DNA of 64,000 nucleotides, taken from Eledone cirrhosa (Eukaryota). Within the stretch, counting starts at the first letter, position 1. Each line of letters opens with the position of its first letter. Below the pieces are notes generated by a model. It was not told where the DNA came from. It was given only the letters and a program-made list of their open reading frames with translations, and made no database searches. Shown in pieces: positions 4,823 through 57,783 of this stretch. Location: the NCBI GenBank assembly GCA_964016885.1, contig OZ024742.1:283464001-283528000 (forward strand), given 5' to 3'. A program made the position numbers and the translations under genes.

Positions 4823-4877
4823 GTAGGTACTAATTTTACTTATTTCATTTCTTTCTATTATTAAAGTTGTGCTGTGC

Positions 4878-5480
4878 AGTAGATTGGCAGTATCGGGACA
4901 GTGTCGGAGAACATGCTTTGCGGCATATAGTTACGTCCCTTTATGTTTTTGGTTCGAATCCCGCTGTGGTTAGCTTTGTCTTTCATCCTTACGGGATCGA
5001 TAAAATAAAGTACCAGTAATGCACTGGCGTCGATTTAATTGATTCCCCCCCCCCCAAAAAAAAATTGTTGGCCTCGTGCATAAATCGGAAACCATTATTA
5101 AAGTTTGGCGGTGGATTGGTAGTATTGGTAGAGGGTTGAATGCCATGCTTTGAAGCATAGAGTTACAGCCCTTTACGATCTGAGTACAAATCCCGCCGAA
5201 TTTAACTTTGCCTTTCATCCTTATGGGGTCAATAAAATAAAGTACCAGTAATGCTCTGGGGTAATTGCTGACCGTATGCCAAAAAAAGAAACAATTATTA
5301 AAGTTGTGCATATGTGCATAAGACAGTGGATTAACAGTATCGATATTTAGTTACGACTTTCTACATCCTCAGTTCAAATCCCGCCGAGATTAACTTTACC
5401 TTTCATCCTTACGGGGTTGATGTAATCAACTTTCCCCGATATACAAATTGCTGTCTTTATGTCTAGATTAGAAATCATTT
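4878..5480 (+). mobile_element. Three tandem copies of tRNA-derived SINE family 1
   Basis: A-box-like TGGCAGTATCGG, B-box GTTC(A/G)AATCC, body aactttgcctttcatccttacggggtcgataaaataaagtaccag. Many copies in the window. Confidence 0.8.
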
Positions 5481-6649: not shown

Positions 6650-7390
6650 GACGATGGATTAACTGAACAGGTAGAGCGTTGGACAAAATGTTTTGCTGCT
6701 TTTAGTTATGGTTCTTAATGTTCTGATTTCAAATCCCGTCAACATCAACTTAGTCTGTTATCCTTCCTGGATCGATAAAATAAGGTACCTGTAACGCACT
6801 GGGGTCGATTTCATCGACTTTCCTTTTCCCTTCAAATTGCTAGCCTTGTGCCAAAAGTAGAAATTTAGGGTGGTCGATTGGCAGTATTGGTGAAGCGTCG
6901 GACAAAATACTTTACGCTATTTATAAGACTTTCTGCGTACTGGGTTGATATCCCACCGAAACCAACTTTGACTTTTCCCTTTATGGGTCGGTAAAATAAA
7001 ATACCAGTTAAGTACTGGGGCCGATATAATCCATTTTTCTCTATCCCCCAAATTGCTGGCTCTGAGCCAATGTTAGAAAAAATTATTAAATTGAAAGTTA
7101 GTTATTTCACTAAACTTCTAATAATTATTGATTATTTGCTAATTAAAACTGAAAGGCAGCATATTTTGTATGAAATATGATCACAAAAAGGTCAACTAGC
7201 TCGGTATTTGTTCTGGTTCTCTGCGTTCTGAATTCAAATATCTCCGAGGTCAACTATGCCTTTTATCCTTTTGGGGTTGATACGTACCAGTTCATTGGCG
7301 GTGGATTTCACCGAATTATTAATACGTCGGATGGGATGCTTTGTGGAATCTGTTCCGGATCTGTGCTTCTGAATTCAAATCTCGCCACCT
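6650..7390 (+). mobile_element. Cluster of degenerate SINE family 1 copies
   Basis: Repeated A/B-box heads and tcatcc..gggtcgataaaataa body. Confidence 0.7.
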
Positions 7391-10154: not shown

Positions 10155-10504
10155 ATGTATATATGTATGTATATATGTATGTGTATATATATATATATGC
10201 GCGGGGACATAGAAATAGTCGGGCTGGACACCCGATCGTACGGTTAAACCACTGGGAGTGAAGGACCCCTAGCCTTTGTCAGGGCATTCTTCTAGGAGAA
10301 GGCAACTCAGGAAACTGGGATAACTGCAATATAAAACCTACGGCTCAGTAGTTACCGATGATGTTGATCTTTTCTTCTTTTCGGGTTATAGCTACAGTCA
10401 CTCAGAGAGTGGGATTGGCTCAGTGCATAGTCTTTCCTCACTTTAAATAATATCTTCACGCACAGGCATTGCACGATAGAATTAATTAATAATTATTAAT
10501 TGTT

Positions 10505-10690
10505 TATACTTTTGGCACAAGGCCAGCAATCATCTCAGTGCATTACTGGTACTTTATTTTATCGACCCCGTAAGGATGAAAGGCAAAGTTAACCTTGGTG
10601 GGATTTGAACTCAGATCGTAAAGGCCCGTAACTCCATGCTGCAAACCTTGGCGTCCGACCCTCTAACGATACTACCAATCCACCGCTTAA
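10505..10690 (-). mobile_element. SINE family 1 copy
   Basis: Reverse complement of the SINE head and body (ctggtactttattttatcgaccccgtaaggatgaaaggcaaagtt...gatttgaactc). Confidence 0.8.
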
Positions 10691-10772
10691 TAATTATTAA
10701 TAATGGTGTATCGTACAATGGCCATACTCGATCACGAGGGGCAGCCATCATATATATATATATATATATATG

Positions 10773-10843
<71 letters not shown>

Positions 10844-10869
10844 GGGGGGGGGGGTATTGCTATTTATTA

Positions 10870-11095
10870 GCAAAGGCGAAAAATTGGTATTGGTTCCGGC
10901 TCTCTGCTCTCTGAGTTCAAATCTCGCCGAGGTCAACTTTGCCTTTTATCCTTTCGAGGTCTATAAATAAAGTACCGGTCAAGTCCTGGGGTTGATTCTT
11001 CCTCTATATCTCTTTCTCAATTCATCTCTCTCTCTCTCTATCTATATATCTATCTATTTCTATCTCTCTCTCTCCCTCTCTCTCTCTCCCTCTCT

Positions 11096-12643: not shown

Positions 12644-13734
12644 CAGATAGAAAAATGCGTACAGCAAAAAAAAGTAATATTGTTGGAATATAAACCTTTA
12701 AAAATACAGGACAAGAAACTAAAATAAAACTTTAAAAATACAGGACAAGAAACTAAAATAAAACTTTAAAAGAATAGGACAAGAAACTAAGATAAAACTT
12801 TAAAGAATTGGACAAGAAATAAAAAAATGTACAATAATATTAGTGGCAAAATGTTTTTATTCGTTTCCTGTGCTATGCCCCAGTATCTTCTTGATTAGTG
12901 CATAATAATTGTCATGCTCTCATTGTGCGTTGCCCCTGAGCGGTTGGTTCTGGTTGGGATTGGTTGGCTGAGCAGTTCTGCTCCGTCAGAATGACCATTG
13001 CAAGAAGAATTGGCCGATGCAGCTGCAGGTCTCCTCCAAGAATGCACTTCTGGACCCGCAACACCAGACGAAGATGGAGAAGACGACCGGGACAAGATGT
13101 CGACTCTGACCACCGACTACGGCACCTCCCTCAACCACCGGTCCTCCCTCCCTCTGTCCCGTCATCCCTCCAGTCCTCCTGCTCCCCCTTCCTGTACCAG
13201 AAAGCTGTGGCACGCATTCATCTGGACTGCCGGACTTGAACTCAAGGACAAGATGCAAGGAGAAGATGGACGGGTTGGTCAAGATCAAGGATGGGCGGGA
13301 CGACAAGACCGTCCGCTGCTGCTCAAGATCTGTGCTCATGGGCCCATGGGTCCATTCACATTATGCATGACACATGAGGCGTGTCGCCGAATGATGAAAT
13401 AGGGGTATGGTTATGGCCCAATTGGTGTTCAAACCAGGATCAAATGATCCCCCCGGTTTGACGACGACCTCTGAATGTGGAACCCAGAGCCTATGAATGT
13501 GGAACTCGATTTTTTTACCAATAAAAATTTTGCCACTAATATTATTGTAAATTTTTTTATTTCTTGTCCAATTCTTTAAAGTTTTATCTTAGTTTCTTGT
13601 CCTATTCTTTTAAAGTTTTATTTTAGTTTCTTGTCCTGTATTTTTAAAGTTTTATTTTAGTTTCTTGTCCTGTTTTTTAAAGGTTTATATTCCAACAATA
13701 TTACTTTTATTTGCTGTACGCATTTTTCTATCTG
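12644..13734. mobile_element. Foldback/MULE-like element with about 215-bp TIRs and a GC-rich core
   Basis: TIRs at 12644-12860 and 13518-13734, with about 34-bp internal subrepeats (caggacaagaaactaaaataaaactttaaaaata). Flanks atagtagac / atagtataa resemble a degenerate target duplication. Confidence 0.75.
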
Positions 13735-17480: not shown

Positions 17481-18028
17481 ATATTAAAAAAATAATGAAT
17501 AAAACAATGAAACAGTTCCTTATATTAAACAAAAAAAGTTCATTATTTAACGATCGTTTCTGGGATATATATGTGTTAGAATTGGCATGTATATTTAACA
17601 GATCTATGTACAAAATTATACAAAATTATACAAACTATCAAAATTAAATATACATACCAACTCATATATATGCCGTCTTCAGAAATAAATTATTTCTGAA
17701 GACGGCATATATATGAGTTGGTATGTATATTTAATTTTGATAGTTTGTATAATTTTGTATAATTTTGTACATAGATCTGTTAAATATACATGCCAATTCT
17801 AACACATATATATCCCAGAAACGATCGTTAAATAATGAACTTTTTTTGTTTAATATAAGGAACTGTTTCATTGTTTTATTCATTATTTTTTTAATATCTT
17901 GACTCTGTATTCCGTTTATCTTTCACCGAAAGTGATTTTTCATTGCATCTCTTCTTTCCATGATATCCGGATTACATTGAGTTCTTCATACGGATTGGAC
18001 ACTACCGTAAACTCTTGGTAGATTTATC

Positions 18029-18031
<3 letters not shown>
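17481..18031 (+). mobile_element. Palindromic PLE terminal-repeat insertion (IR 17481-17897, unique tail to 18031) in (TA)n
   Basis: Near-perfect 417-bp palindrome centred near 17689; homologous to 2386-2572. Confidence 0.85.
17689..17836 (+). ncRNA. Type I hammerhead ribozyme with 115-nt stem II (mirror copy on minus strand)
   Basis: attattt CTGAAGA [long hairpin] GAAA C GATC GT T aaataat. Stem III ACGAUCGU is palindromic; GUU cleavage triplet. Confidence 0.75.
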
Positions 18032-19244: not shown

Positions 19245-19760
19245 ATTAGGTTGACTTTGCCTTTCATCCTTACGGGGTCGATAAAATAAAGTACCAGTAA
19301 TGCACTGGGTAATGGCTGGCCTTGTGCCTAAAGTAGAAACAATTATTATTATGTGGATTGGCAGTATCGGTAGAGGGTCGAATACCATGCTTTGCAGCAT
19401 AGAGTTACTGCCCTTTATGATCTGAGTTCAAATCCCGCCGTGGTTAACTTTCCCTTTCATCCTAACGGGGTCGATATAATAAAGTACCAGTCACGCACTG
19501 GGTCGATTTAATCGACTTTCCCCTCTCAACCAAAAAAAAAAAAAAATTGTTGGCCTTCTGCCTACATCAGAAACCATTATGACATTTTCATTGATGTAAA
19601 GGTGGCAAATTGGCAGCCATTAGAACAGTGGATACAATTCTTTGATGTATTTGTTCCGGCTCTCTTGCACTATGAGTTCAAATCCCACCGATATCCATTT
19701 TGCCATTCACCTTTTCGAACTCAATAAATAAAGTACTATTCCAGCACTGAATTCGATTCC
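19245..19760 (+). mobile_element. SINE family 1 cluster
   Basis: TGGCAGTATCGGTAGAG ... GAGTTCAAATCCCGCCG ... tcatcc..cggggtcgata. Confidence 0.8.
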
Positions 19761-19929
19761 TCCTCATTTCCTTTCTTTCTCTGGAAGTAACCAGCCCCTA
19801 CTATTCCATCAGGCTTTAAGGGACCGTGACGTGGATGAATGTGTTAATATGTCTTTATTGTCATTGGTAAACCTCTCTTTTACTCAATGTAAATACCCCA
19901 CTGTGTTGTGTTCATTGTTAACTTATATA

Positions 19930-20769: not shown

Positions 20770-22220
20770 GTGAGTATATATCTATGTACTATAGTATACA
20801 GGGGGAGCATTAAGTCTTTCCCTGGTTATAAAATGCCATATCTCGGGATTTTACTTTAACATTGATTTAATTTATAAATTTCAAGTTTAAAGTTTTTCTG
20901 AACATTTTTTACATTTTCTCTTCTACAGGAAGTAGTTATAATTTTCAGTAACAAAATGGCATCTATGAAATAAAAAGCTCAGTGTGGAAAGACTATGCTC
21001 ACCTGGTATTATTAAGGCCCGCGGTCTAGTGGTTAGAGTGTTGGTCTTATGATCGCAATGTCGTGAGTTCGAATTTTAGACTGGGTGGCGTGTTTTGTTC
21101 TTGAGCAAAACACTACATTTCACGTTGCTGCTTTCAATGCAGCAGCGTGAAATCTTGTACTCTTAATCTATTGGTATCAATGAAGCCAGGATAAATTCCA
21201 TCCTAATGAGCTTCCAGGCTTTAGACAGACTATACTTTAACCCTTACCTTATAGTATACCATAGGATAAACCAATAGGTCTAAGTCACTGCTGCATGTGT
21301 AAATCAATTAAAATAATTAGATACACTGAACTGTCGTTAGAGCGTAGCACAAAATTACTTGCTGTTTCTTCCGATTCTCTGAGCTCTGAGTTCAAATCCC
21401 GCCGAAGTCAATGGTGTATTTCATCTTTTCGGATGGCAAAGGCGTTGTATTTACGATCATAATGTCGTGGGTTAGTTTCCTTGGCTGGGTTATGTGTTGT
21501 GTTCTTGAGCAAAACACTTCATTTCACATTGCTCCAGTATACTCAGCAATAGCTGGGGGCTGAACCCTGAGATGGACTGACGTCCTGTCCAGGGAGGAGT
21601 CTTGTACTCTCAGTCGCTTCACGCCATGAAACCGGGCTAAGCACCGACCTAACGAGCCTTCTTGCTTAGATTAGACCAATCTGGGTATGGGCAATCGAAC
21701 GAGATGTTTTGCGGTATTTGTTGCTGCCCTTAGCGTTTGGGATTCAAATACCACGGTTGTCAACTTGGGTTAACATCACCACTTGGCTCGCAGATGCCTT
21801 CAGAGGAGTCCGCTCTCTTGCAAACGTTAAGTTCAGGTTTCCAGTTTGAGGATACCTTTCTTGCTTCCTCCCTCCCTCCCTCCCTCCTTCAATCCTCCCA
21901 GTCTCGGAGGGGTTGAAGGGTGTCATGGGCAATGTCTTTTTGTCGGGGGAACACGGGTTTATAGACGATTGAAACTACCGCCCAGAATTAGAGCCCTTGC
22001 CATTCACTTCCTTTTCCGTTTTTTTTTTTATTTATATTTTCTTATTTTACGTTCCAGCCATTCTTCTCAATCTAAAATTATTTTTTCTTTTTCTATTAAA
22101 TTATATTTCCATGATGTATATTTTACATGGCATAAAAGACGGCGACTATATTACCCATATTTCATTTATTGATCCAACAAACATAAAGATCGACTGAATG
22201 GATATTAATATTCTTTGCAG

Positions 22221-22322
22221 AAAACAGGAAACACGGCTCTACACCTGGCTGCCGCTGGTGGTCATAAGAATGTATTACTTACCATATTAGAGGCTGGTGC
22301 TCTTGCCACTGATGAGAACCAT
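22221..22322 (+). CDS. nompC: TRPN/NompC exon (ankyrin repeat)
   Basis: ttgcag|AAA...CAT|gtaag. KTGNTALHLAAAGGHKNVLLTILEAGALATDENH. Confidence 0.92.
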
Positions 22323-22751: not shown

Positions 22752-26916
<4,165 letters not shown>

Positions 26917-27715: not shown

Positions 27716-27852
27716 GTATATATATATGTATATATGTATATATATATGTATATATGTATATATATATGTATATATATATGTATATATGTATATGTATATA
27801 TATATGTATATATGTATATGTATATATATATATATGTATATATATATATGTA

Positions 27853-29021
27853 TAATATGTTGAGAAGGTAACACACCAGAGAGAGATATATAGCGCGTTA
27901 TCAATAATACAGGGAAAAAAACCACCAGTGTATGGAATCTATAACCTATGAAAGGCAGACTATAGACACGATAATTAAAAATATAAATTAAAGCGTAAAT
28001 AAATACCTTTATAACTATATAACACACGTACAAATCCAAAGATATGTTTCACCAGAAAATGTGTTGAAAGAAATGGTAGTCTCGGTTCATCAGCGTGTGT
28101 AAGGCTATACATTTCAGACAACACTAAGAGAATTTTACAATTGACTGTCCAGCTACACGTGGGAGAGAGAAGTCACAGCGTGTTTAAGGGCAGTGAACCA
28201 GTGGCCTCTGAGAGACGAACTGCTAGAAAGGGCAGCCCAAAGCCACTCAGAGAAGAGTGCTCAACCAAACAGAGATAGGAAAGACTGTTGTTAGGAGAGG
28301 TTATAGATTCCATACACTGGTGGTTTTTTTCCCTGTATTATTGATAACGCGCTACATATCTCTCTCTGGTGTGTTACCTTCTCAACATATTATACTTTAA
28401 AGGGCTCAGGATCTCTTCCCCTTTGAGCACATTATTTACAGGGAATAACGACGGCCTATGCCTCCGTTAATTTATCGTGATATTTCGCTCCTAACAACAG
28501 TCTTTCCTATCTCTGTTTGGTTGAGCACTCTTCTCTGAGAGGCTTTGGGCTGCCCTTTCTAGCAGTTCGTCTCTCAGAGGCCACTGGTTCACTGCCCTTA
28601 AACACGCTGTGACTTCTCTCTCCCACGTGTAGCTGGACAGTCAATTGTAAAATTCTCTTAGTGTTGTCTGAAATGTATAGCCTTACACACGCTGATGAAC
28701 CGAGACTACCATTTCTTTCAACACATTTTCTGGTGAAACATATCTTTGGATTTGTACGTGTGTTATATAGTTATAAAGGTATTTATTTACGCTTTAATTT
28801 ATATTTTTAATTATCGTGTCTATAGTCTGCCTTTCATAGGTTATAGATTCCATACACTGGTGGTTTTTTTCCCTGTATTATTGATAACGCGCTATATATC
28901 TCTCTCTGGTGTGTTACCTTCTCAACATATTATACTTTAAAGGGCTCAGGATCTCTTTCCCTTTGAGCACATTATTTACAGGGAATAACGACGGCCTATG
29001 CCTCCGTTAATTTATCGTGAT
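27853..29021 (+). mobile_element. Non-coding HHR element: 5' inversion plus about 1.35 tandem copies of a 540-bp monomer (retrozyme-like)
   Basis: 27853-28296 is the reverse complement of about 28488-28934; 28298-28483 recurs at 28838-29021; no credible ORF; (TA)n flanks. Confidence 0.85.
28685..28763 (+). ncRNA. Type I hammerhead ribozyme with full stem III (inverted copy at 28022-28100)
   Basis: acacacg CTGATGA acc..ggt GAAA catatc tttg gattt GTA cgtgtgt. Confidence 0.85.
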
Positions 29022-29118
29022 ATATATGTATATATATATATGTATATATATATATGTATATATATGTATATATATATATGTATATATATATATGTATATA
29101 TATATATGTATATATATG

Positions 29119-29205
<87 letters not shown>

Positions 29206-29506
29206 GTATATATATATGTATATATATATATGTATATATATATATGTATATATATATGTATATATATATGTATATATATATATGTATATATATATATGTA
29301 TATATATATGTATATATATATATGTATATATATATATGTATATATATATATGTATATGTATATATGTATATATATATATGTATATATGTATATATATATA
29401 TATATGTATATATGTATATATATATATGTATATATATATATGTATATATATATATGTATATATATATATGTATATATATATATGTATATATGTATATATA
29501 TGTATG

Positions 29507-29559
<53 letters not shown>

Positions 29560-29656
29560 GTATATATATATATGTATATATATATGTATATATATATATA
29601 TATGTATATATATATGTATATATATATATGTATATATATATATATGTATATATATA

Positions 29657-30618
29657 TGTAAGTATGCATGTATACGTACATACATATATGTATTTAACTC
29701 ACTCAATATGCAAATTAGGCTGCTCAGCCGTTAATTTTCATAAGGAAAGTATATACTTTCGAACGTTCAACTATCTGGCAGATGGGTAAACGGTGCTGAT
29801 GATAGCTAACAAGCTTGAAACTAGTACATCGTTCCTGTGTCAGTGTTGAACAAAAAGGTGACGTGGTTGCCTTAACACCGTATGGCATAAATTCAGGCTG
29901 TTCAGTTTGTTTACAAACGAACAAAGCGACGTTATAATAAGAGCCGCTAAACTGATACGTGCATATATGTATGTGTACCTGTATGCATATGTATGTATAT
30001 ATGTATATATATATATATATATGTGCATGCTACTGTACGTCTGTATACATATATGTATGTACGTATACATGCATACTTACATTTAAGTAAGTGCCATACT
30101 AAGAGTGAGAAATGAAATTTCGTTTTCATTTTGTTTCAATTTATCGTTTTCGGTATGCCTGACCGATTTAACTCACTCAATATGCAAATTAGGCTGCTCA
30201 GCTGTTAATTTTCATAAGGAAAGTATATACTTTCGAACGTTCAACTATCTGGCAGATGGGTAAACGGTACTGATGATAGCTAACAAGCTTGAAACTAGTA
30301 CATCGTTCCTGTGTCAGTGTTGAACAAAAAGGTGACGTGGTTGCCTTAACACCGTATGGCATAAATTCAGGCTGTTCAGTTTGTTTACAAACGAACAAAG
30401 CGACGTTATAATAAGCGCTGCTAAACTGATACGTGCATATATGTATGTGTACCTGTATGCATATGTATGTATATATGTATATATATATATATATATATGT
30501 GCATGCTACTGTACGTCTGTATACATATATGTATGTACGTATACATGCATACTTACATTTAAGTAAGTGCCATACTAAGAGTGAGAAATGAAATTTCGTT
30601 TTCATTTTGTTTCAATTT
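29657..30618 (+). mobile_element. Two-copy insertion of the 474-bp HHR repeat with a short 5' inversion; HHRs at 29789-29833 and 30263-30307
   Basis: Reverse complement of the 53562-57478 unit with 474-bp period; 29657-29690 is antisense to about 30521-30557. Confidence 0.9.
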
Positions 30619-31981
<1,363 letters not shown>

Positions 31982-34712
31982 TCAGTGAAGAACACAACAA
32001 ATGCTGCAGTAGTAGGAGTGGGTTTTGTGTTCAGTGCAAAAACCAATCTGTTGGTGAGGGAAATAATGCCTATCTCCCCGCGAGTGTTGAGGGTGACCTT
32101 CAATGGAAACCCAAGACTGACAGTCATCTCAGCCTATAGTCCAACCGAGGGGGACAGTGATGTGAATGCGGAGGAGTTCCATGAGGAGGTGTGTAGAGCT
32201 GTCAACACCACTCAGGCACACACTATCCTGCTTGTTTTGGGGGACTTCAATGCACATCTGAGTAAGGAGGGCAGTGAAGATCCTTGCTGGTACTTCCATA
32301 ACAACACCAACCGAAATGGAAGACTACTGAGAGACACCCTGCTGGAGGCGAACTTGATGGCGACCAACCTAAGGTTTGGGAAGAATCTGGGGAAGATGTG
32401 GACCTACATCTCAGATATGCACCTGTCCAAGTCCCAGATTGATTTCATTCTGGTGAGGAAAAAGTGGCGGAATAGTGTTCTGAACACGGAACCATACAGC
32501 TATTTCAGTACACTGGGTAGTGACCACCGGCTTGTTATGAGTGAGGTCCGCGTGAGCTTAAGAAAGAGCAAGGCTCAGCCCCGGAGAACAATCTATGACT
32601 GGGGAGCTTTCAAGGAAGATGATAAGCTACAGGAGAGGTTCACAGTGGAAGTGAGAAACAGGTTTAGTGCTCTGTGTGGAGAGTCAGAGGAGAGAGAGAT
32701 TGGATGGACTGAGGAGAGTGTGACGAGGAGGTACGGGCACTTCACCAATGCAGTGGCGAAAGCAAGTGAAACCCTGGTGCCGAGAAAAAAGAACAAAGGG
32801 AAGCACGTCAGCTCTGCAAACCCAAAATTGTGTGCAGCCAGAGAACACCTGAAAGCTGCCAGGGACCAATTCTATGCTGATCCTACGGAGGAGAGGATGG
32901 AGACTGTGGAGGTGATGAGGGAAGAGCTCTGTACCGCTTACACTGAGGTCAGAGAGGAGGCACTGATAGAGAAGATCAGAAGTGTGGAGAGAGCGGTTGA
33001 CAGATCTGGATGTAAGGAGAGCTGGATGATCATCAATGAGATCACAGGGAGGAAGAAAAGGTGTTCGAGTCAGATCCAGAGAACGGGGCCCGAGGATAGG
33101 AAGAGGAAATGGCTAGACCATTTTAGGACCCTACTAGGAGAGCCACCCTCCACAGCCCAGAGCACTGGGGAGATCAGGCGGCTGTTTGAGGAACTGGATG
33201 TTGAGACAGAGCCCTTCACCAGAGAGGAGCTTCAGAGAGCCAAGAAGAAGATCAAGGAGGGCAAGGCTCATGGAGAAGATGGAGTGGCATCAGAGGTGAT
33301 GAAGAGGTGTGATTTTGATGATATCATCCTGGGGTTCTGTAACGGGGCACTGGAGAAAGGAGTTGCCCCGAATCAGTGGAGGATCAGTAACATCGTCCCA
33401 GTGCCAAAGAAAGGAGATCTCTCTAACACCAACAACTAGCGGGGGATCTCACTGACGTCACTTGTGGCAAAGACCCTCAACAGGATGATTCTTAACAGGA
33501 TCCAGCCTGAGATGGAGAAGAAGCTCAGGGACAACCAGAACGGCTTCAGAGAGGGTAGATCAACCACCAGTCACGTCCTGATGCTGAGGAGGATATTAGA
33601 GGGAGCTAGAGCAAAGTGCCTTCCTGCGGTCATGGTTTTCATTGACTTTAGGAAGGTCTTTGATTCTGTGGACCGTTACTGCCTGATGAAGATCTTACAG
33701 GCTTATGGAATCCCCAAGAGGATAGTGGACCTGATATCACTGCTCTACACCAACACCAAAGCCTGATGGGATGACAGAGTTCTTTGAGATACTGGCTGGA
33801 GTGCTCCAGGGAGATACATTGGCTCCCTACCTTTTTATCATCGTAGTGGACTATTGTATGCGCCTTGCACTGGAGAAACACCAGGACACTGGCTTTACTG
33901 TAGCACCGGCTCAGAGCAGGAGAGTTGGGGCGAAAAAGGTATCGGATGCTGAATTTGCCGACGACATAGTTTTGGTGACAAATACAGTGAAGGAGGCAGA
34001 GGATTTGATGCGGGAGGTTGAGACTGTGTCGATGAGTGTGGGGCTGAGAATGAATGAGACTAAAACAAAATATCTGGTAGAGAATGTTGAGAAGCCAGAG
34101 GGGATCACTAATGTAGGCGGGAAGCCGCTGGAATTGGTTGAGGACTTCCTGTATTTGGGAGCAAAGATTGGGAATACGGAAGATGATGTGGTTGAGAGGA
34201 AGAGCAAGGCCTGGGCGGCGTGTCACAGCTTGAGATCGGTGTGGAAGTCGGACCTTCGTAGAGACCTGAAAATCCGCCTCTTCATTGCTGTAGTGGAGTC
34301 TGTGCTGCTGTATGGGTCTGAGACTTGGACACTGACCAAGAGACTCACTCAGGTGGTGGATGGGTGCTACACGAGAATGCTGAGGATGGCTCTGAACATT
34401 AATCAGTATACACTGAGGATGAAAAACTCAGAGCTGTATGGGAGCATCCCAAAAGTCAGCTCAAAAGTGACACAGAGGAGACTGAGGTTGGCTGGACATG
34501 CTCACCGACATCCAGAGTTGACATTGCACTCAGTGCTCCTTTGGGAGCCCCTACATGGACACACTAGAAGAGGAAGACCAAGGTTAACATATGTTGATGC
34601 CCTAAGGACAGACACTGGTCTGTTGGAGATGCAGGATATGGCAGCGATAATGAGGGACAGAGACCGCTGGAGAGAACTCGTCCATGGATCTCGGGAATTT
34701 TACCCGCCTTAG
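31982..34712 (+). mobile_element. RTE-clade non-LTR retrotransposon, 5'-truncated, disabled (AP endonuclease + RT)
   Basis: APE motifs SAYSPT, LGDFNA, QIDFIL, SDHRLV. RT motifs QNGFREGRST, FIDFRKVFDSV, GVLQGDTLAPYLF, FADDI; C-terminal LLYGSETW, GRPRLTY. In-frame TAG at 33437 and a deletion/frameshift near 33763; TATG tail. Confidence 0.93.
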
Positions 34713-34721
34713 ATATGTATG

Positions 34722-34791
<70 letters not shown>

Positions 34792-34793
34792 TG

Positions 34794-36803
34794 TTGTTAT
34801 ACTTTGGGAGGGTCATGTTGCCAATAAGAAACACACGCACCAGTTGCTTTCACTTCAATTTATTATAATAAATTTATAATAAATTTATAAATTTATAAAT
34901 TTCTGGTTGGTTGGTTGGTTCCACAACCAGATAGTTGTTTATATATAGTCATAGTTCTTTCGTCACACACTCTGTGACCTCTTCAGTGACTGGGGATTCC
35001 TTTCTTTGTTTCTGTGCCTCTCCTTTGTTCTGTCCTACGCCATTTTGTTTCTGTGTGTGTGTTGTGTGCTCAGTCTGCGCATGCGCCACATCCGGGTGTC
35101 TGTGTGTGTTTATGTTCATTTATTTATTTGTTTATTTACATGTTACTGGCTGGTTGTTTGTTCTATGTGTGTGTGTGTTTTCATTTTGTCCTTAATTGTA
35201 AGTTGTGATGTTGCTGTTCCACTCATATTTTCTATTTAATTTTGGTTGTAATTCTTTTATGTTTATTGCCTCTGTAATTTGTCTAAACATTGCGTCTTTT
35301 CTGTGTGTAGATTCTATTTTTATTTCTATGTTCTCTAATTTACCCTTGTGTTCTATTTTAGCATGTTGGTAGAGTACAGATGATTCTTTACTATCTTGAA
35401 GGTCTCGCCAGTGTTCATTTAACCGTTCCCCTACACTACGAGCTGTCTCACCTATGTACACTATATTTTTGTCTCTACATTGTCCTTCAGTACATCTTAT
35501 GCTATACACTACATTTTTAGTTTTACAGTTAATATGGGGGCTTATTTTACAGTTTATACATTTCTTATCTATACATGAGGGTCTTTGGAAAGGGTATGTC
35601 CATTACGCGAGCGCTGCATGAGCTTACGCAAGCCATTTGCAGATTTTTCTCCCAGTTGCTGGGCCTCAATTCTATTATGCTTCTTGCTATACTGTTCTAT
35701 AATATTTCTAAGTTCGGATCTAGCTATACTAAATTGTGCTTCTGTTTGTTCATCGATCTGCGACGGCAATTGCGTGCGTTTGTTAAATGGTAGAGTCGTG
35801 GCGTGGACTCGTCGCAGGTCGAATACAACCCCTAGAGGTGAATTAGCTTACAAATTTAGAAGGGCCCTAAATAAACATAAACTCAATATTAAGATAGTAG
35901 AAAGACCAGGTACCTCCGTAAAAACACTTATTAGCAAGACATACCCTTTCCAAAGACCCTCATGTATATATAAGAAATGTATAACCTGTAAAATAAGCCC
36001 CCATATTAACTGTAAAACTAGAAATGTAGTGTATAGCATAAGATGTACTGAAGGACAATGTAGAGACAAAAATATAGTGTACATAGGTGAGACAGCTCGT
36101 AGTGTAGGGGAACGGATAAATGAACACTGGCGAGACCTTCAAGATAGTAAAGAATCATCTGTACTCTACCAACATGCTAAAATAGAACACAAGGGTAAAT
36201 TAGAGAACATAGAAATAAAAATAGAATCTACACACCGAAAAGACGCAATGTTTAGACAAATTACAGAGGCAATAAACATAAAAGAATTACAACCAAAATT
36301 AAATAGAAAATATGAGTGGAACAGCAACATCACAACTTACAATTAAGGACAAAATGAAAACACACACACACATAGAACAAACAACCAGCCAGTAACATGT
36401 AAATAAACAAATAAATAAATGAACATAAACACACACAGACACCCGGATGTGGCGCATGCGCAGACTGAGCACACAACACACACACAGAAACAAAATGGCG
36501 TAGGACAGAACAAAGGAGAGGCACAGAAACAAAGAAAGGAATCCCCAGTCACTGAAGAGGTCACAGAGTGTGTGACGAAAGAACTATGACTATATATAAA
36601 CAACTATCTGGTTGTGGAACCAACCAACCAACCAGAAATTTATAAATTTATAAATTTATTATAAATTTATTATAATAAATTGAAGTGAAAGCAACTGGTG
36701 CGTGTGTTTCTTATTGGCAACATGACCCACCCAAAGTATAACAATATCGGTTTCAACACACGATTTCAGATAAAGAATCTTGCTAAACAAATTCAGAAAC
36801 GAA
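34794..36803 (+). mobile_element. Truncated Penelope-like element (Naiad-like C-terminus) with about 800-bp 5' inversion; GIY-YIG fragment at 35826-36346
   Basis: TPRGELA..KIVERPG..CIYKKCITC..NCKTRNVVYSIRC..YIGETARSVGERINEH..RQITEA..LNRKYEWN. 34794-35598 is the reverse complement of about 35940-36745; unique tail to 36803. Clade assignment is from memory of motifs. Confidence 0.88.
36547..36591 (+). ncRNA. Minimal type I hammerhead ribozyme (inverted copy at 34947-34991)
   Basis: agtca CTGAAGA g gtcac agagtgt gtgac GAAA g aa CTA tgact. Confidence 0.8.
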
Positions 36804-36830
36804 ATATATATATATATATGTATATATATG

Positions 36831-36863
<33 letters not shown>

Positions 36864-36874
36864 GTATATATATG

Positions 36875-36931
<57 letters not shown>

Positions 36932-36946
36932 GTATATATATATATG

Positions 36947-37059
<113 letters not shown>

Positions 37060-37284
37060 GTATATATATATATGTATATATATATATGTATATATATATA
37101 TGTATATATATATATGTATATATATATATGTATATATATATATGTATGTATATATATATATATGTATATGTATATATATATATATGTATATATGTATATA
37201 TGTATATATGTATATATGTATATATGTATATATGTATATATGTATATATGTATGTATATATATATATGTATATATATATATATG

Positions 37285-37333
<49 letters not shown>

Positions 37334-37400
37334 GTATATATGTATATATATGTATATATATATATGTATATGTATATGTATATATGTATATGTATATATG

Positions 37401-37443
<43 letters not shown>

Positions 37444-37475
37444 ATATATATATATATGTATGTATATATATATAT

Positions 37476-37913
37476 GACCAAAGATTAATATGGTTCGTTG
37501 ATTACTCAATGGATACAATTTTACAATAGTTTAGAAGCACTCAACTGAAGTTTTCCTGGAGTTTTTAATATTATTCAAAATATTAACAAATGAAAAATAT
37601 TCTCATAATCAAAATATATACTTTATTATATATATTTCAAAGGTACTGTGTTTTTTTTTTTCAGTACGTCCTCATCAGACAAAATATATGATTAGATATA
37701 TGACATACCACTACGGTCTTGATTATACAATTCCAATACACTGCCAATACTGGAATTGTATAATCAAGACAGTAGCGGTATGTCATATATCAAATCATAT
37801 ATTTTGTCTGATGAGGACGTACTGAAAAAACAACACAGTACCTTTGAAATATATATAAAGTATATATTTTGATTATGAGAATATTTTTCATTTGTTAATA
37901 TTTTGAATAATAT
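37476..37913 (-). mobile_element. Palindromic PLE-type terminal repeat with HHRs (minus copy about 37617-37688 intact; plus copy about 37798-37864 with a 3-nt loss)
   Basis: IR 37568-37913. Minus strand: tatattttgt CTGATGA ggac gtactg..cagtac cttt GAAA tatatat A ataaagtata. Confidence 0.75.
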
Positions 37914-37949: not shown

Positions 37950-38139
37950 GGCTGATTAACAACATGCTTTCTCTCTTCTCTTACTATTCCCTTGTTTTCT
38001 TTTTTTACTCTTGTCTGTCTTTTTTTTTTCTTTTTTTTTTCGTTTCTGTCCCAAACATCTTCTCTTCTCTTTGCTTTTATCTTCCATTGAAAGACAGACG
38101 TCCGAACATTAAATCTCTTTTCCAACGTTATTACTAGTA

Positions 38140-38355
38140 TTGTAGGATTGGCAGTATCGGTAGAGCGTCGGACGCCATGCTTTGCAGCATAGAGTTACGC
38201 CCCTTTATGATCTGAGTTCAAATCTCGCCGAGGGTAACTTTGCCTTTCATCCTTATGGGGTCGATAAAATAAAGTACCAGTCACGCACTCGGGTCGAAAT
38301 AATCGACTTTCCCCCTCCCCCAAAATGGCTGGCCTTGTGCCTATATAAGAAGCAT
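38140..38355 (+). mobile_element. SINE family 1 copy
   Basis: Full head and body. Confidence 0.8.
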
Positions 38356-38495
38356 TACTATTATTGTATTGTGTTGTACTCTTGTAATGCTTTTCTTCTT
38401 GACCTTTCTTTTCCTGTTACCCACCCTACTACCCTAAGTATCGAGTACTCTGGTGCGTTATTGTCCACCTGGTTTCTTACCACACTTTCTTTGTT

Positions 38496-38641: not shown

Positions 38642-38740
38642 TATGGAATGACAACTCTACATCTTGCAGCACAATATGGCTACGTCCACATCCTTGAAGC
38701 CCTAAAGGATTCCATCTCATGGGAATACACAAGCAAAAAG
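38642..38740 (+). CDS. nompC: TRPN/NompC exon (ankyrin repeat)
   Basis: ttacag|TAT...AAG|gtaag. YGMTTLHLAAQYGYVHILEALKDSISWEYTSKK. Confidence 0.92.
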
Positions 38741-38929
38741 GTAAGGTAATTCTTCAAATTCTGTCTATTTTACGAGAGGTATCGAGTGTATATATAATTT
38801 CACATGAAAAGCAGAGGGTAAATAGGGGTAACTGGTTGGGAGTTATTAATATAAAGGTTGGATAGTAATAGCTGTTACACCTTTAATCATAACAGTCAGA
38901 CATTTCGTCATTATTTTAACACCTATGAT

Positions 38930-39372
38930 AATGATTTCTACTATAGGCACAAGTCCAGCCATTTGGTGGGGAGCGGAAAGTCGATTAAATCGACCCCAGT
39001 GCATTACTGGGGCTTTATTTTATCAACCCCGTAAGGATGAAAGGCAAAGCTAACCTCGGTGAAAGTTGAACTCAGAACGTAAAGGGCCATGACTCTGCGC
39101 CACTAAGCATGTTGTCCGACGCTCTACCGATTCTTCCAATTCCCCTTATGTAGCGCCTATGATAATAACTGTAAGACCTTTAGTTATATCTGTAATACCT
39201 TTCATTATAACTGTAGGGCGGTGGATTAGAAGTATCGGTAGAGCGTCAAACACCAAGCTTTGCAGCATAGAGTTACGGTCCTTTACGGTCTGAGTTCAAA
39301 TCCCGCCGAAGTTAACTTTGCCTTTCATCCTTACTGGGTTGATAAAATAAAGCCTATAGTAGAAATCATTAT
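38930..39372. mobile_element. Divergently oriented pair of SINE family 1 copies
   Basis: Minus copy about 38930-39145; plus copy about 39215-39372. Confidence 0.75.
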
Positions 39373-41550: not shown

Positions 41551-41872
41551 CGAAGGAAATGTGGTAAGGAACCAGGTGGACCATAACGCACCAAAGTACT
41601 CAATACTTGGGGTAGTATATATGGTGGTATATATATATAGGAAAAAGTATGACCCCCGACGGCAGAGCTCAAGCCGTTTCGACGGCTATTTCTGGACTAA
41701 ACATTAGTCCAGAAATAGCCGTCGAAACGGCTTGAGCTCTGCCGTCGGGGTCATACTTTTTCCTATTTCCCACTCTACTACCCTAAGTATTGAGTACTCT
41801 GGTGCGTTATGGTCCATCTGGTTCCTTACTACAATTCCTTTTCGCTGGCCACTTTGTTGATTATTACGCAGC

Positions 41873-42307: not shown

Positions 42308-43055
42308 TTGATTGGCAGTATCGGTAGAGCGTCGGACAACATTCTTTGTGGCATACAGTTACGTCCCTTTACGTTCTGGGTTCAAAATCCCACCGTGGTT
42401 AGCTTTGCCTATCATCCTCACGGGGTCGATAATATAAAGCACCAGCAATGCACTGGGGTTGTTTTAATCCACTTCCACCACCCCATATTTGTTGGCCTTG
42501 TGCCTAAATCAGAAACCAAGGGCGGTGGATTGGCAGTATCGGTAGAGGGTCGGATGCCATGCTTTGACGCATAGAGTTACGGCCCTTTACGGTCTGAATT
42601 CAAATCCCGCCGAGGTTAACCTTGCCTTTTATCCTTACGGGGTCGATAAAATAAAGCACCAGTAACGTACTGGGGTCGATTTAATCGACTTTCCCCTCCT
42701 CCAAAATTACTGGCCTTGTGCCTATACTAGAAATCATATCTACAAAGTTATCCTCATGGCTCAAGGACTTGGAGATTCGTGTTTTAGCACGAATCTCCTG
42801 GCCCTCTGTCACTCGTATAACTTCTCATCTATAATAATAATTGTTTCTACTTTAGGCACAAGGCCAGCAATTTTGGGGAAAGGGAAAAATCGATTAAATC
42901 GATCCCAGTGCATTATTGGTAATTTATTTATCGACCCCGTAAGGATGAACGGCAAAGCTAACATCGGTGTGATTTGACCTCAGAACGTAAAGGGCCGTAA
43001 CTCAATACTGCGAAGCATTTTGTCCGAGGCTCTACCGACACTTCCAATCCACCAC
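42308..43055. mobile_element. SINE family 1: two + copies (42308-42735) and one - copy (42840-43055)
   Basis: A/B boxes and conserved body. Confidence 0.8.
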
Positions 43056-43145
43056 CCTATAATAATTATTATTACACACACACACAGATATATGTAACAT
43101 GATAAAATATATGTTAGTGCCTCAATGTATGTGTTCCTTTTGTAG

Positions 43146-47595: not shown

Positions 47596-48587
47596 CAGTG
47601 GCGGACTGGCCAGGTTGCCAGGTTACCCAATGGCAAGTGGGCCCCAGGGAGCCCACAGTAGCATTGCAAGAGCCCACAGTAGCGTTGCAGGGCCCACTGT
47701 AGTATTTTAGGGGCCAATACTTTGCTTTCAAAGAATACCCGAAATCTAAGAGAAAGAATAAAAAAAAATTTTAAATAAATAAAACAATTAAGCAAAGCAT
47801 TTGGTCAACCAAGGAGGGGGAGAAATGAGGTGGAACAGAAATGAAACATGGATTGCAGGTTAAAATGTAGTCTAGATAGATGTGAAACAAAACGAGGATG
47901 TAGTTTATGGAAAACCCAAGTGATTTAGAAGTCGACCTTAAGTAGGAGCAATAACATTAAGAAAGACATAAACCATTTTTAAATTTTTGAAAGTAGATTT
48001 GCAAGTATGAATTTTCATAAGATTTTCGTAGTTGTCTCTGTGGCCTAGCGGTAGGTACTGGAGACGCTGGAAATCCTGGCCTTGAGTTCTATCCTGGTCA
48101 AGAGGTGCATGTAACCGTTTTCAGTTTTTATTTTACAACCAATAGAAAAAAACTGAAAAGATTTATCACCCTTCTCCCGATCAGGATCGAACTTCAGACC
48201 AGGATCACCACTGTCTGTGATTCCTCCAACTAGGCCATTGAGACAGCTACAAAAGTATACTGAAAATTGATAATTATAAACCTACTTTCAAAATCAAAGT
48301 TAAAAAGATGTGGTGTCGTTGATGGCTTTCCTAGAGCTATTAGTAATATTTAGGGTCGACTTCTGGTCATTATTGAAAGTCTCTGGATTTTGCAAAATAC
48401 ATAATATTTTTTATTGGAGAAGGTAAGATATTTTTCCGCAAAAATTTGATTGCACTGTTTTGTTTCCACTTATGTATTTTTCGAAAATGTTATTTACTCA
48501 TTATAAAAATCAAATGATAGCATTCTATATGTAGGTGGGCCCCCTTCATCTCCTGGCAACCAATATTTTTAGACCCAGTCCGCACTG
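47596..48587. mobile_element. hAT-like non-autonomous DNA transposon in (TA)n
   Basis: TIRs cagtggcggactgg / ccagtccgcactg; subterminal gggccc repeats. Confidence 0.65.
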
Positions 48588-48598: not shown

Positions 48599-48663
<65 letters not shown>

Positions 48664-48956
48664 AACGAGTAGGACCCCGACGGCTGAGCTCAAGCCGTTT
48701 CGACGGCTAATTCTAGACTTTTTTTTTTTTTTTTTTTTAGTCCAGAATTAGCCGTCGAAACGGCTTGAGCTCAGCCGTCGGGGTCCTACTCGTTCCTATT
48801 ACCCACTCTACTACCCTAAGTATTGAGTACTTTGGTGCGTTATGGTCCACCTGGTTCCTTACCACATTTCCTTCGTTATATATATATATATATATATATA
48901 CATACATACATGCATACATATTCTCCATTTGAGTTTCTTAAAATGAATACATACAC

Positions 48957-53228: not shown

Positions 53229-53363
53229 GTAAATTATGCACAGTGAATGTACAGCCGTACCTTGATGAACCTACTGACCTACAGAATGTCGAGTCACATT
53301 CACCAGATGGGCTTGTCCCTTACGAACAGGAAAGCTGGAAAACCAACAAAATTTCACCAGAAT
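53229..53363 (+). CDS. nompC: TRPN/NompC exon (C-terminal tail; gene continues downstream)
   Basis: ttaag|GT AAA...GAA T|gtgag; phase fits the previous exon. (C)KLCTVNVQPYLDEPTDLQNVESHSPDGLVPYEQESWKTNKISPE. Confidence 0.72.
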
Positions 53364-53522
53364 GTGAGAACATTTTTGCATTGCATATTTTATATTTTAC
53401 TTACTTTTATTAACCTTCACTTCAGTATAAGTGCAGATGTTGTTTGAGTGGCAAATAACGCATAAGCGTTAACCTAATATATACCTTCCATACCGATTGT
53501 GTTGTTACTTCTGTTTACCTTT

Positions 53523-53561
<39 letters not shown>

Positions 53562-53565
<4 letters not shown>

Positions 53566-53679
53566 AAACAAAATGAAAACGAAATTTCATTTCTCACTCT
53601 TAGTATGGCACTTACTTAAATGTAAGTATGCATGTATACGTACATACATATATGTATACAGACGTACAGTAGCATGCAC

Positions 53680-53712
<33 letters not shown>

Positions 53713-54153
53713 TATACATATGCATACAGGTACACATACATATATGCACGTATCAGTTTAGCGGCGCTAACGTCGCTTTGTTCGTTTGTAAACAAACTGA
53801 ACAGCCTGAATTTATGCCATACGGTGTTAAGGCAACCACGTCACCTTTTTGTTCAACACTGACACAGGAACGATGTACTAGTTTCAAGCTTGTTAGCTAT
53901 CATCAGCACCGTTTACCCATCTGCCAGATAGTTGAACGTTCGAAAGTATATACTTTCCTTATGAAAATTAACGGCTGAGCAGCCTAATTTGCATATTGAG
54001 TGAGTTAAATCGGTTAGGCATACCGAAAACGATAAATTGAAACAAAATGAAAACGAAATTTCATTTCTCACTCTTAGTATGGCACTTACTTAAATGTAAG
54101 TATGCATGTATACGTACATACATATATGTATACAGACGTACAGTAGCATGCAC

Positions 54154-54186
<33 letters not shown>

Positions 54187-54627
54187 TATACATATGCATA
54201 CAGGTACACATACATATATGCACGTATCAGTTTAGCGGCGCTAACGTCGCTTTGTTCGTTTGTAAACAAACTGAACAGCCTGAATTTATGCCATACGGTG
54301 TTAAGGCAACCACGTCACCTTTTTGTTCAACACTGACACAGGAACGATGTACTAGTTTCAAGCTTGTTAGCTATCATCAGCACCGTTTACCCATCTGCCA
54401 GATAGTTGAACGTTCGAAAGTATATACTTTCCTTATGAAAATTAACGGCTGAGCAGCCTAATTTGCATATTGAGTGAGTTAAATCGGTTAGGCATACCGA
54501 AAACGATAAATTGAAACAAAATGAAAACGAAATTTCATTTCTCACTCTTAGTATGGCACTTACTTAAATGTAAGTATGCATGTATACGTACATACATATA
54601 TGTATACAGACGTACAGTAGCATGCAC

Positions 54628-54660
<33 letters not shown>

Positions 54661-55101
54661 TATACATATGCATACAGGTACACATACATATATGCACGTA
54701 TCAGTTTAGCGGCGCTAACGTCGCTTTGTTCGTTTGTAAACAAACTGAACAGCCTGAATTTATGCCATACGGTGTTAAGGCAACCACGTCACCTTTTTGT
54801 TCAACACTGACACAGGAACGATGTACTAGTTTCAAGCTTGTTAGCTATCATCAGCACCGTTTACCCATCTGCCAGATAGTTGAACGTTCGAAAGTATATA
54901 CTTTCCTTATGAAAATTAACGGCTGAGCAGCCTAATTTGCATATTGAGTGAGTTAAATCGGTTAGGCATACCGAAAACGATAAATTGAAACAAAATGAAA
55001 ACGAAATTTCATTTCTCACTCTTAGTATGGCACTTACTTAAATGTAAGAATGCATGTATACGTACATACATATATGTATACAGACGTACAGTAGCATGCA
55101 C

Positions 55102-55134
<33 letters not shown>

Positions 55135-55575
55135 TATACATATGCATACAGGTACACATACATATATGCACGTATCAGTTTAGCGGCGCTAACGTCGCTT
55201 TGTTCGTTTGTAAACAAACTGAACAGCCTGAATTTATGCCATACGGTGTTAAGGCAACCACGTCACCTTTTTGTTCAACACTGACACAGGAACGATGTAC
55301 TAGTTTCAAGCTTGTTAGCTATCATCAGCACCGTTTACCCATCTGCCAGATAGTTGAACGTTCGAAAGTATATACTTTCCTTATGAAAATTAACGGCTGA
55401 GCAGCCTAATTTGCATATTGAGTGAGTTAAATCGGTTAGGCATACCGAAAACGATAAATTGAAACAAAATGAAAACGAAATTTCATTTCTCACTCTTAGT
55501 ATGGCACTTACTTAAATGTAAGTATGCATGTATACGTACATACATATATGTATACAGACGTACAGTAGCATGCAC

Positions 55576-55608
<33 letters not shown>

Positions 55609-56049
55609 TATACATATGCATACAGGTACACATACATATATGCACGTATCAGTTTAGCGGCGCTAACGTCGCTTTGTTCGTTTGTAAACAAACTGAACAG
55701 CCTGAATTTATGCCATACGGTGTTAAGGCAACCACGTCACCTTTTTGTTCAACACTGACACAGGAACGATGTACTAGTTTCAAGCTTGTTAGCTATCATC
55801 AGCACCGTTTACCCATCTGCCAGATAGTTGAACGTTCGAAAGTATATACTTTCCTTATGAAAATTAACGGCTGAGCAGCCTAATTTGCATATTGAGTGAG
55901 TTAAATCGGTTAGGCATACCGAAAACGATAAATTGAAACAAAATGAAAACGAAATTTCATTTCTCACTCTTAGTATGGCACTTACTTAAATGTAAGAATG
56001 CATGTATACGTACATACATATATGTATACAGACGTACAGTAGCATGCAC

Positions 56050-56082
<33 letters not shown>

Positions 56083-56523
56083 TATACATATGCATACAGG
56101 TACACATACATATATGCACGTATCAGTTTAGCGGCGCTAACGTCGCTTTGTTCGTTTGTAAACAAACTGAACAGCCTGAATTTATGCCATACGGTGTTAA
56201 GGCAACCACGTCACCTTTTTGTTCAACACTGACACAGGAACGATGTACTAGTTTCAAGCTTGTTAGCTATCATCAGCACCGTTTACCCATCTGCCAGATA
56301 GTTGAACGTTCGAAAGTATATACTTTCCTTATGAAAATTAACGGCTGAGCAGCCTAATTTGCATATTGAGTGAGTTAAATCGGTTAGGCATACCGAAAAC
56401 GATAAATTGAAACAAAATGAAAACGAAATTTCATTTCTCACTCTTAGTATGGCACTTACTTAAATGTAAGTATGCATGTATACGTACATACATATATGTA
56501 TACAGACGTACAGTAGCATGCAC

Positions 56524-56556
<33 letters not shown>

Positions 56557-56994
56557 TATACATATGCATACAGGTACACATACATATATGCACGTATCAG
56601 TTTAGCGGCGCTAACGTCGCTTTGTTCGTTTGTAAACAAACTGAACAGCCTGAATTTATGCCATACGGTGTTAAGGCAACCACGTCACCTTTTTGTTCAA
56701 CACTGACACAGGAACGATGTACTAGTTTCAAGCTTGTTAGCTATCATCAGCACCGTTTACCCATCTGCCAGATAGTTGAACGTTCGAAAGTATATACTTT
56801 CCTTATGAAAATTAACGGCTGAGCAGCCTAATTTGCATATTGAGTGAGTTAAATCGGTTAGGCATACCGAAAACGATAAATTGAAACAAAATGAAAACGA
56901 AATTTCATTTCTCACTCTTAGTATGGCACTTACTTAAATGTAAGTATGCATGTATACGTACATACATATATGTATACAGACGTACAGTAGCATG

Positions 56995-57034
<40 letters not shown>

Positions 57035-57478
57035 TATACATATGCATACAGGTACACATACATATATGCACGTATCAGTTTAGCGGCGCTAACGTCGCTT
57101 TGTTCGTTTGTAAACAAACTGAACAGCCTGAATTTATGCCATACGGTGTTAAGGCAACCACGTCACCTTTTTGTTCAACACTGACACAGGAACGATGTAC
57201 TAGTTTCAAGCTTGTTAGCTATCATCAGCACCGTTTACCCATCTGCCAGATAGTTGAACGTTCGAAAGTATATACTTTCCTTATGAAAATTAACGGCTGA
57301 GCAGCCTAATTTGCATATTGAGTGAGTTAAATCGGTTAGGCATACCGAAAACGATAAATTGAAACAAAATGAAAACGAAATTTCATTTCTCACTCTTAGT
57401 ATGGCACTTACTTAAATGTAAGTATGCATGTATACGTACATACATATATGTATACAGACGTACAGTAGCATGCACATA
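53562..57478 (-). repeat. Tandem array of a 474-bp unit (8 full copies + partial), one HHR per unit: retrozyme-like family A
   Basis: Near-identical units with 474-bp period; (TA)n at both ends. Confidence 0.95.
53869..53913 (-). ncRNA. Type I hammerhead ribozyme, family A (repeats every 474 bp)
   Basis: AACGGUG CUGAUGA U AGCU AACA AGCU U GAAA C UA GU A CAUCGUU. Confidence 0.85.
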
Positions 57479-57688: not shown

Positions 57689-57730
57689 AATATGGTTTTA
57701 TAAATATAGTTTCCATTTATTTAATATCAT

Positions 57731-57780
<50 letters not shown>

Positions 57781-57783
<3 letters not shown>

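Follow-up and report, generated by a model that had tools for sequence, protein, structure and literature searches.

Insertion junctions of the Penelope type on a tandem hammerhead repeat of Eledone cirrhosa

A 474-bp tandem repeat, here called family A, occurs as two insertions in the 64,000-nt stretch of Eledone cirrhosa DNA that we analysed (the window). Its sequence and the anatomy of its junctions lead us to conclude that family A is probably a non-coding hammerhead non-LTR retrozyme copied in trans by a Penelope-like (PLE) reverse transcriptase (RT)/GIY-YIG protein. Two family-A insertions and one family-A inversion are visible with their flanks in this 64-kb window.

Results

The host gene is a TRPN1/NOMPC-like ankyrin ion channel, with 13 exon matches on the plus strand between 3055 and 53398. 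Its largest exon is 97% identical to an ankyrin/ion-channel protein of O. bimaculoides (P0001), and other matches listed are named TRPN1 or NOMPC. Exons at 22218-22322 and 38642-38740 lie on either side of the smaller family-A insertion, which is therefore intronic. It belongs to a chain of five insertions in one intron (27850-37913: element C, the small family-A insert, a LINE, P1 and element D), with TA-rich spacers of up to 1.4 kb. The LINE (31983-34712) is near-complete, with APE and RT domains, is broken by a stop and a frameshift, and has TA tracts on either side. A similar chain occupies 53526-64000 (the large family-A array, a D-like fragment, element E and family B). The window also contains a diverged dispersed repeat of about 215 bp, abundant and often in tandem or inverted pairs (4857-5430, 6652-7088, 10489-11043, 19248-19778, 38128-38364, 38925-39354 and 42310-43074), which is probably a SINE.

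The small family-A insert is built in the order (TA)n, inverted arm, 1.95 units of the 474-bp repeat, unique tail, (TA)n.

29020 to 29655, no strand: left TA-rich microsatellite flank (target tract)
29656 to 29693, minus strand: inverted arm of family A, 38 nt exact; its start is site 2 (partner position 30558)
29692 to 30617, plus strand: body, 926 nt, 1.95 units of 474 bp
29789 to 29833, plus strand: type I hammerhead motif, copy 1; predicted cleavage after 29826; U.U at the first stem II pair
30182 to 30189, also at 29708, plus strand: ATGCAAAT octamer, conserved in families A and B; candidate promoter element
30263 to 30307, plus strand: hammerhead copy 2; predicted cleavage after 30300; stem I pair broken by G>A at 30269
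30559 to 30617, plus strand: unique 3' tail between site 2 and site 1, with a hairpin inside
30618 to 31982, no strand: right TA-rich microsatellite flank

The arm is the perfect reverse complement of 30521-30558. A preliminary description of this DNA had given the inverted copy 35 bp; we count 38 nt of exact match, and 35 lies within the ambiguity of the edges, where the outermost 1-3 nt possibly belong to the flank and the innermost 2 nt (AT) are common to the body. Arm and body thus join at a 2-nt AT microhomology. The statement that the inversion lacks the last 60 nt or so also holds: the tail after 30558 measures 59-62 nt and is present at the 3' end alone. The insert ends at 30617-30620, where it reads ...TTTCAATT and then passes into TA alternation, with a maximal match to 30620. 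Both flanks have a TA/AT score of 0.86, and no TSD is discernible in them.

Four substitutions separate the two units of the small insert. Three of the four lie inside the stretch compared with the public run X1, in which 98.8-99.8% of the depth carries the other letter at those positions; because each is rare there, they are private and probably later mutations. The G>A at 30269 is private to the second hammerhead copy and breaks a stem I pair beside the core.

The second insertion is larger and lies on the opposite strand.

53562 to 57500, minus strand: large family-A array, 8.3 units; same 3' end as the small insert; 5' end within the unit's own (AT)12 run
57501 to 57732, plus strand: D-like hammerhead fragment in antisense, directly next to the 5' end of the large array; outer edge at site 2 of element D, then (AT)n

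At its 3' end the array reads ...TTTCA(AT), followed by TA at 53562 and a flank with a TA/AT score of 1.0. This end agrees with that of the small insert to 2-3 nt, as the preliminary description had claimed; two random breakpoints would fall within 3 nt of each other on a 474-nt unit with P=0.015. The shared end had been placed about 318 nt downstream of the cleavage site, and in the small insert it indeed lies 317-320 nt after the predicted cleavage at 30300. Less of the stated setting could be kept. Opposite strands and an intronic insert of about two copies are borne out, but the large array sits 3' of the last mappable exon (53231-53398), and because it lies beyond that exon we do not place it in an intron.

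A 6-nt indel is common to both units of the small insert and absent from all units of the large array, so the two insertions come from different source copies. Within the array, units 3 and 5 share a variant that the other units lack. No family-A inversion is present at the array's 5' end, where the junction consists of the unit's own (AT)12+A, without any extra target repeat, and then the D-like fragment; the length of this run matches 7 of the 8 other runs in the array.

Every family-A unit carries one type I hammerhead, giving 10 hammerhead copies, one of them with a stem I mismatch. Stem I of the motif is 7 bp long, stem II is short, and stem III is minimal and palindromic. Against the Rfam model HH9 it scores 18.5 bits in family A and 37.7 in family B, both under the gathering score of 52. 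Between the A and B hammerheads the core is kept and both partners differ in 6 of the 16 pairs, a count based on 3 distinct rows in two families, and self-cleavage of family-A RNA is predicted from the motif together with this covariation. A stem II G-C pair is described as highly conserved in hammerheads (PMC4209133); with U.U in its place, family A may cleave slowly. The scanner missed the second hammerhead copy of the small insert and those of elements P1, C, E and F, which were read by eye. Motif scans returned 0 matches in metagenome, viral and prokaryote genome contigs, and Rfam miRNA matches in the window were discarded as TA-repeat noise.

The family-A unit contains no credible ORF: its longest ATG frames are 40-76 aa and mostly microsatellite-derived. 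A PLE RT or GIY-YIG ORF is absent from both A and B, and neither family shows sequence similarity to coding PLE termini within the window. The GC content of the array is about 0.35, and the monomer folds stably (z -8.4), in part through a TA-rich hairpin. With tandem type I hammerhead units, non-coding sequence and GC below 50%, family A has, as judged from its DNA, these features of the non-LTR retrozymes.

All 20 of the ATGCAAAT octamers in the window lie inside A or B at a homologous place (29708, 30182, 53987-57309 and 59271-63859), in family A about 118 nt upstream of the predicted cleavage site. The octamer is a possible internal promoter. Newt satellite 2 has an snRNA-type promoter; our literature search found no paper on an octamer promoter in hammerhead satellites.

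The relative of family A at the end of the window, family B, is also inverted.

58915 to 62972, minus strand: family B inverted arm; 469-bp relative of A, 8.6 units; starts at the homologous site 2 beside (TA)n
62972 to 64000, plus strand: family B body, at least 2.2 units; continues beyond the window

The family B arm is 4058 nt long and meets the body at a 1-nt overlap. It starts 2-4 nt past an ACTTA common to A, in a small hairpin loop homologous to that of A. Its units are near-identical in both arms, with 3 substitutions and changes in A-run length over 10 full units. This near-identity suggests that the multimers were made at insertion, and is equally compatible with a circle and with an uncleaved transcript as their source.

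Taken together, the ends point to two start sites on the unit, at about +318 (site 1) and about +258 (site 2) from the predicted cleavage, the tail being the distance between them. Site 1 is found in 2 of 2 family-A insertions in the window, and site 2 in one family-A copy and, by homology, in family B. The inverted 5' arm occurs in one of two family-A insertions and in the single family-B insertion. Related copies repeat site 2 in the hairpin loop of A and B, at the edges of F and F0, and at the edges of D and the D-like fragment. Eight regions folded around site 2 have no structure in common (z +0.7 to -3.5). A P1-like copy at 13871 was considered as a second site-2 edge and rejected because its sequence continues past site 2.

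Evidence from outside the window came from comparing the family-A monomer at 29880-30353 with 4 of 24 public runs; 29980-30076 was skipped as repeat, so that the comparison bears on site 1. X1 contains 4629 contig pieces matching the monomer, spread over 90-100% identity, and family A must therefore be large and diverse in X1. Among the loose ends listed, 12 of 94 rows, one X9 contig has its loose end at 30144, followed by (AT)n, as at the junction of the small insert. Consensus loose ends at 30125, from at least 17 X1 and at least 3 X9 contigs, carry variant tail letters and then AT-rich sequence at roughly that same position. One X9 contig among them begins at 30302, beside the predicted cleavage site. 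X4 yielded one self-closing 470-nt contig, a closure that tandem DNA produces too. The independence of these data is limited, because X1 is possibly the source of the window itself and the X9 end possibly belongs to the same locus. With that proviso the 3' site is supported by the contig ends, and the evidence for the inversion site is one family-A copy and its homologues.

The same layout, TA, inverted arm, body, tail and TA, is complete in seven elements of the window: A, P1, P2, C, D, E and F.

1 to 2570, minus strand: F0, broken RT+EN PLE with Hydra-like motifs; inverted arm 2382-2570 beside (TA)38; 3' end outside the window
17481 to 18030, plus strand: element F; inversion, long-stem-II hammerhead, 133-nt tail resembling the start region of F0
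22755 to 26692, plus strand: P2, coding PLE fragment; inversion, broken GIY-YIG frame, variant hammerhead, tail of about 107 nt, TA on both sides
27850 to 29020, plus strand: non-coding element C; inversion, partial tandem, hammerhead, 85-nt tail
34794 to 36803, plus strand: P1, coding PLE fragment; 807-nt inversion, GIY-YIG frame with CX4CxxC linker, hammerhead, 59-nt tail, TA on both sides
37477 to 37913, minus strand: non-coding element D; inversion, hammerhead, 91-nt tail
57780 to 58527, plus strand: non-coding element E; inversion, hammerhead variant, 76-nt tail

The preliminary description had reported this layout in the coding PLE fragments, and we find it whole in P1 and P2; F0 has its 5' edge alone in the window. 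Tails measure 60 nt in A, 59 in P1, 107 in P2, 85 in C, 91 in D, 76 in E and 133 in F. Site 2 and site 1 both lie 3' of a hammerhead-like cleavage site in 7/7 elements, and the TA/AT dinucleotide content is at least 0.7 at 12 of their 14 outer edges, as against 7.3% of 30-mers in the window.

GIY-YIG matches have E-values of 2e-4 in P1 and 8e-3 in P2, just below or well below the Pfam cut-off. P2 and F0 align with three RT+EN proteins (P0121-P0123) that carry CxCX5C-like linkers; F0 has the motifs RWT and DKT, and the EN of P2 has CxxC and CxH. Hydra clade criteria are RWK-like and DKT motifs, a CxCX5C linker, and CxxC and CxH in EN (Craig 2021, PMC8557442). By the motifs given there, F0 and P2 look Hydra-like and P1 looks Neptune-like.

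Several details of these elements are recorded here in their own right. The tail region of P1 (36723-36803) runs into an apparent ORF start (MTHPKY...), with a related start at about 13896 on the minus strand; a tail running into an ORF start is reported for other PLEs. In the hammerhead variant of P2 (26495-26537 and 22798-22840) TTGAAAA replaces the core CTGANGA. In element F the stem II region of the hammerhead-like motif at 17690-17836 extends over about 120 nt; the inverted arm of F0 is a related copy of this motif. Element G (221-bp inverted repeats, 12644-13734) was left out of the count because it is without TA flanks and no hammerhead was detected in it; its inverted repeats hold 34-bp tandem units around a GC-rich core, it adjoins a P1-like fragment, and it is possibly a non-autonomous DNA transposon. 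Further palindromes, also outside the count, lie at 2677-2844, 39011-39354, 41553-41840, 42519-43058, 47927-48364 and 48662-48796.

Discussion

The junctions of family A can be read as the product of one reaction. A PLE enzyme would nick both strands of (TA)n, and the 3'-OH of each nick would prime a cDNA at an internal site of the RNA, one at +318 and the other at +258. Each cDNA would extend upstream across the hammerhead sites, to a variable length, and the two would be joined head to head, leaving an inversion, a body and a tail. We infer the enzyme and the order of the steps from an anole PLE (Frangieh 2024), and take the anatomy as observed. That a PLE RT/GIY-YIG protein acts in trans had already been proposed in the preliminary description; the anatomy supports it and matches the two-start mechanism of the anole element (PMC11167929). 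The same description had reverse transcription begin at one fixed internal site. Fixed internal initiation stands, but at two sites.

For such a reaction the RNA template would have to span cleavage sites. We give an even chance to an uncleaved multimer; a circle is possible, on the doubtful side of even, and template jumping or later expansion is distinctly unlikely. A template of "circular or multimeric RNA", as first put, survives as a disjunction, but for its circular half an uncleaved multimer fits at least as well.

A PLE could have inserted copies of a self-cleaved, circularised monomer, the arrays arising by rolling-circle reverse transcription, an account that we regard as rather doubtful. 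Inserts that cross 2, 8 and 9 predicted cleavage sites, family B units that are almost alike (3 substitutions over 10 full units) and unit differences in the small insert that are private and probably later all agree with it, as do the stable fold of the monomer (z -8.4, partly from the TA-rich hairpin) and the circles formed by coral, mussel and axolotl retrozymes (PMC7229834). However, a variant common to units 3 and 5 is unexpected from a single circle without later exchange, the stem II U.U may slow cleavage in family A, and the anole PLE works in vitro mainly on unprocessed RNA, with no requirement for cleavage (PMC11167929). The variant in non-adjacent units would be at home in another scheme, in which a PLE inserted a partial tandem of one to two units and the long arrays grew later by unequal crossing-over, like satellite DNA. 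The partial tandem in element C is a possible starting point for such growth, and a 2026 preprint raises local amplification from a pLTR (10.64898/2026.07.22.740005). We nevertheless think it quite unlikely, given that both arms of family B hold multiple units, almost identical to one another, and meet at an overlap of 1 nt, and that the small insert already spans two predicted cleavage sites.

That family A is a SINE-like element mobilised by a LINE such as the APE+RT element at 31983-34712, and that its inversion comes from ordinary twin priming, seems very unlikely to us. A LINE with APE and RT domains does lie in the same TA tract, and twin priming with microhomology is known for LINE-1. 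In twin priming, however, the second cDNA starts at variable internal positions, unlike site 2, which recurs at homologous positions in related copies; moreover, the 3' end of family A is internal to the tandem unit, and neither poly(A) nor a 3' end in common with the LINE was found. It is scarcely credible that the coinciding ends come from replication slippage, recombination or assembly errors at AT-rich spots near microsatellites. Long TA tracts are difficult to assemble, and the unit has an internal TA run into which the 5' end of the large array falls, but the 3' end and the inversion start are outside that run, two arrays of different subfamilies (distinguished by the 6-nt indel) have the same end, and one layout recurs in seven elements of different sequence families.

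Copying by a PLE might extend to two RNAs in one integration, although we consider this unlikely. The large array and the D-like fragment would then be a chimera, with priming at site 1 of A for the body and at site 2 of a different, D-like RNA for the inverted arm (57501-57732), and multi-unit arms such as the 8.6 units of B would be rolling-circle copies of circles that the ribozyme had made. In its favour, the junction consists of exactly the unit's (AT)12+A and the antisense fragment stops at site 2 of D, a geometry expected when two RNAs are used in a single insertion. If so, A and D-like RNAs would share one dimeric enzyme. Two successive insertions into a single TA run would give the same picture and explain it too.

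PMC7229834 and the 2026 preprint, whose arguments come from co-occurrence and phylogeny, both leave open the identity of the enzyme that spreads animal hammerhead tandems and the question of whether arrays form during insertion or by later growth. Compared with these lines of evidence, the junctions of an insertion are a more immediate trace, in a sample that is small here. The PLE-type junctions on family A support the existing, unproven idea that PLEs move such repeats. They locate two start sites at nucleotide level in a short non-coding RNA, with candidate driver clades in the same genome, and the link between PLEs and retrozymes therefore becomes testable in silico and in vitro.

Metazoan non-LTR retrozymes, and the proposal that PLEs mobilise them, are described in PMC7229834 (Cervera & de la Pena 2020) and PMC8969392. 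Like family A, they are non-coding, low-GC tandems with one type I hammerhead per unit, found as dimers to multimers and co-occurring with PLEs. Their units are 150-450 bp (PMC7229834) or 51-972 bp (10.64898/2026.07.22.740005), compared with 474 bp in family A. Expression and circles are known for retrozymes, whereas family A is known here from DNA, with no pLTR similarity found locally. Li, Clavereau & Pollet 2026, the authors of that preprint, treat vertebrate co-occurrence and pLTR phylogeny and leave the mechanism open in the text available. The tail/inversion junction of family A is not described for retrozymes in the available text of PMC7229834 and the preprint, and the word "tail" has 0 uses in the latter. 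A literature search, mostly outside subscription papers, Repbase and supplements, found neither a PLE tail/inversion junction on a retrozyme nor an octopus retrozyme; the supplements of PMC7229834 and of the preprint may bear on this. The 2026 repeat annotation of O. vulgaris (PMC13282606) lists 31 recently active PLE families, and the words hammerhead, ribozyme and retrozyme do not occur in its main text as available.

The signature of EN+ PLEs is an inverted 5'-truncated copy, a one-sided tail, (TA)n targets and no discernible TSD (PMC8557442, PMC3846280). The Hydra and Neptune clades share with family A the inversion, the one-sided tail, (TA)n and a hammerhead upstream of the 3' end. Family A differs from EN+ PLEs in having no ORF, a longer tail and perfect multi-unit arrays; tails in the window (59-133 nt, 60 in family A) exceed the 30-40 bp reported. 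Its hammerhead is of a short-helix-II kind, in contrast to the minimal PLE type with long helix II. In vitro, the PAc Poseidon element of Anolis cuts both strands of AT-rich DNA and uses two internal RT starts that bound the tail (PMC11167929). PAc thus resembles family A in having two such sites downstream of a hammerhead define the tail, although those of PAc lie in an AC-rich stem-loop within an autonomous ORF and those of family A are deduced from two non-coding genomic copies. Chlamys elements (MRC1) are, like family A, non-coding, multicopy, head-to-tail and PLE-mobilised, but they are algal, generally driver-like at the 3' end and mostly without canonical hammerheads (PMC8557442). Overall, the insertion signature is known PLE biology, and family A is an added member of the animal non-LTR retrozymes.
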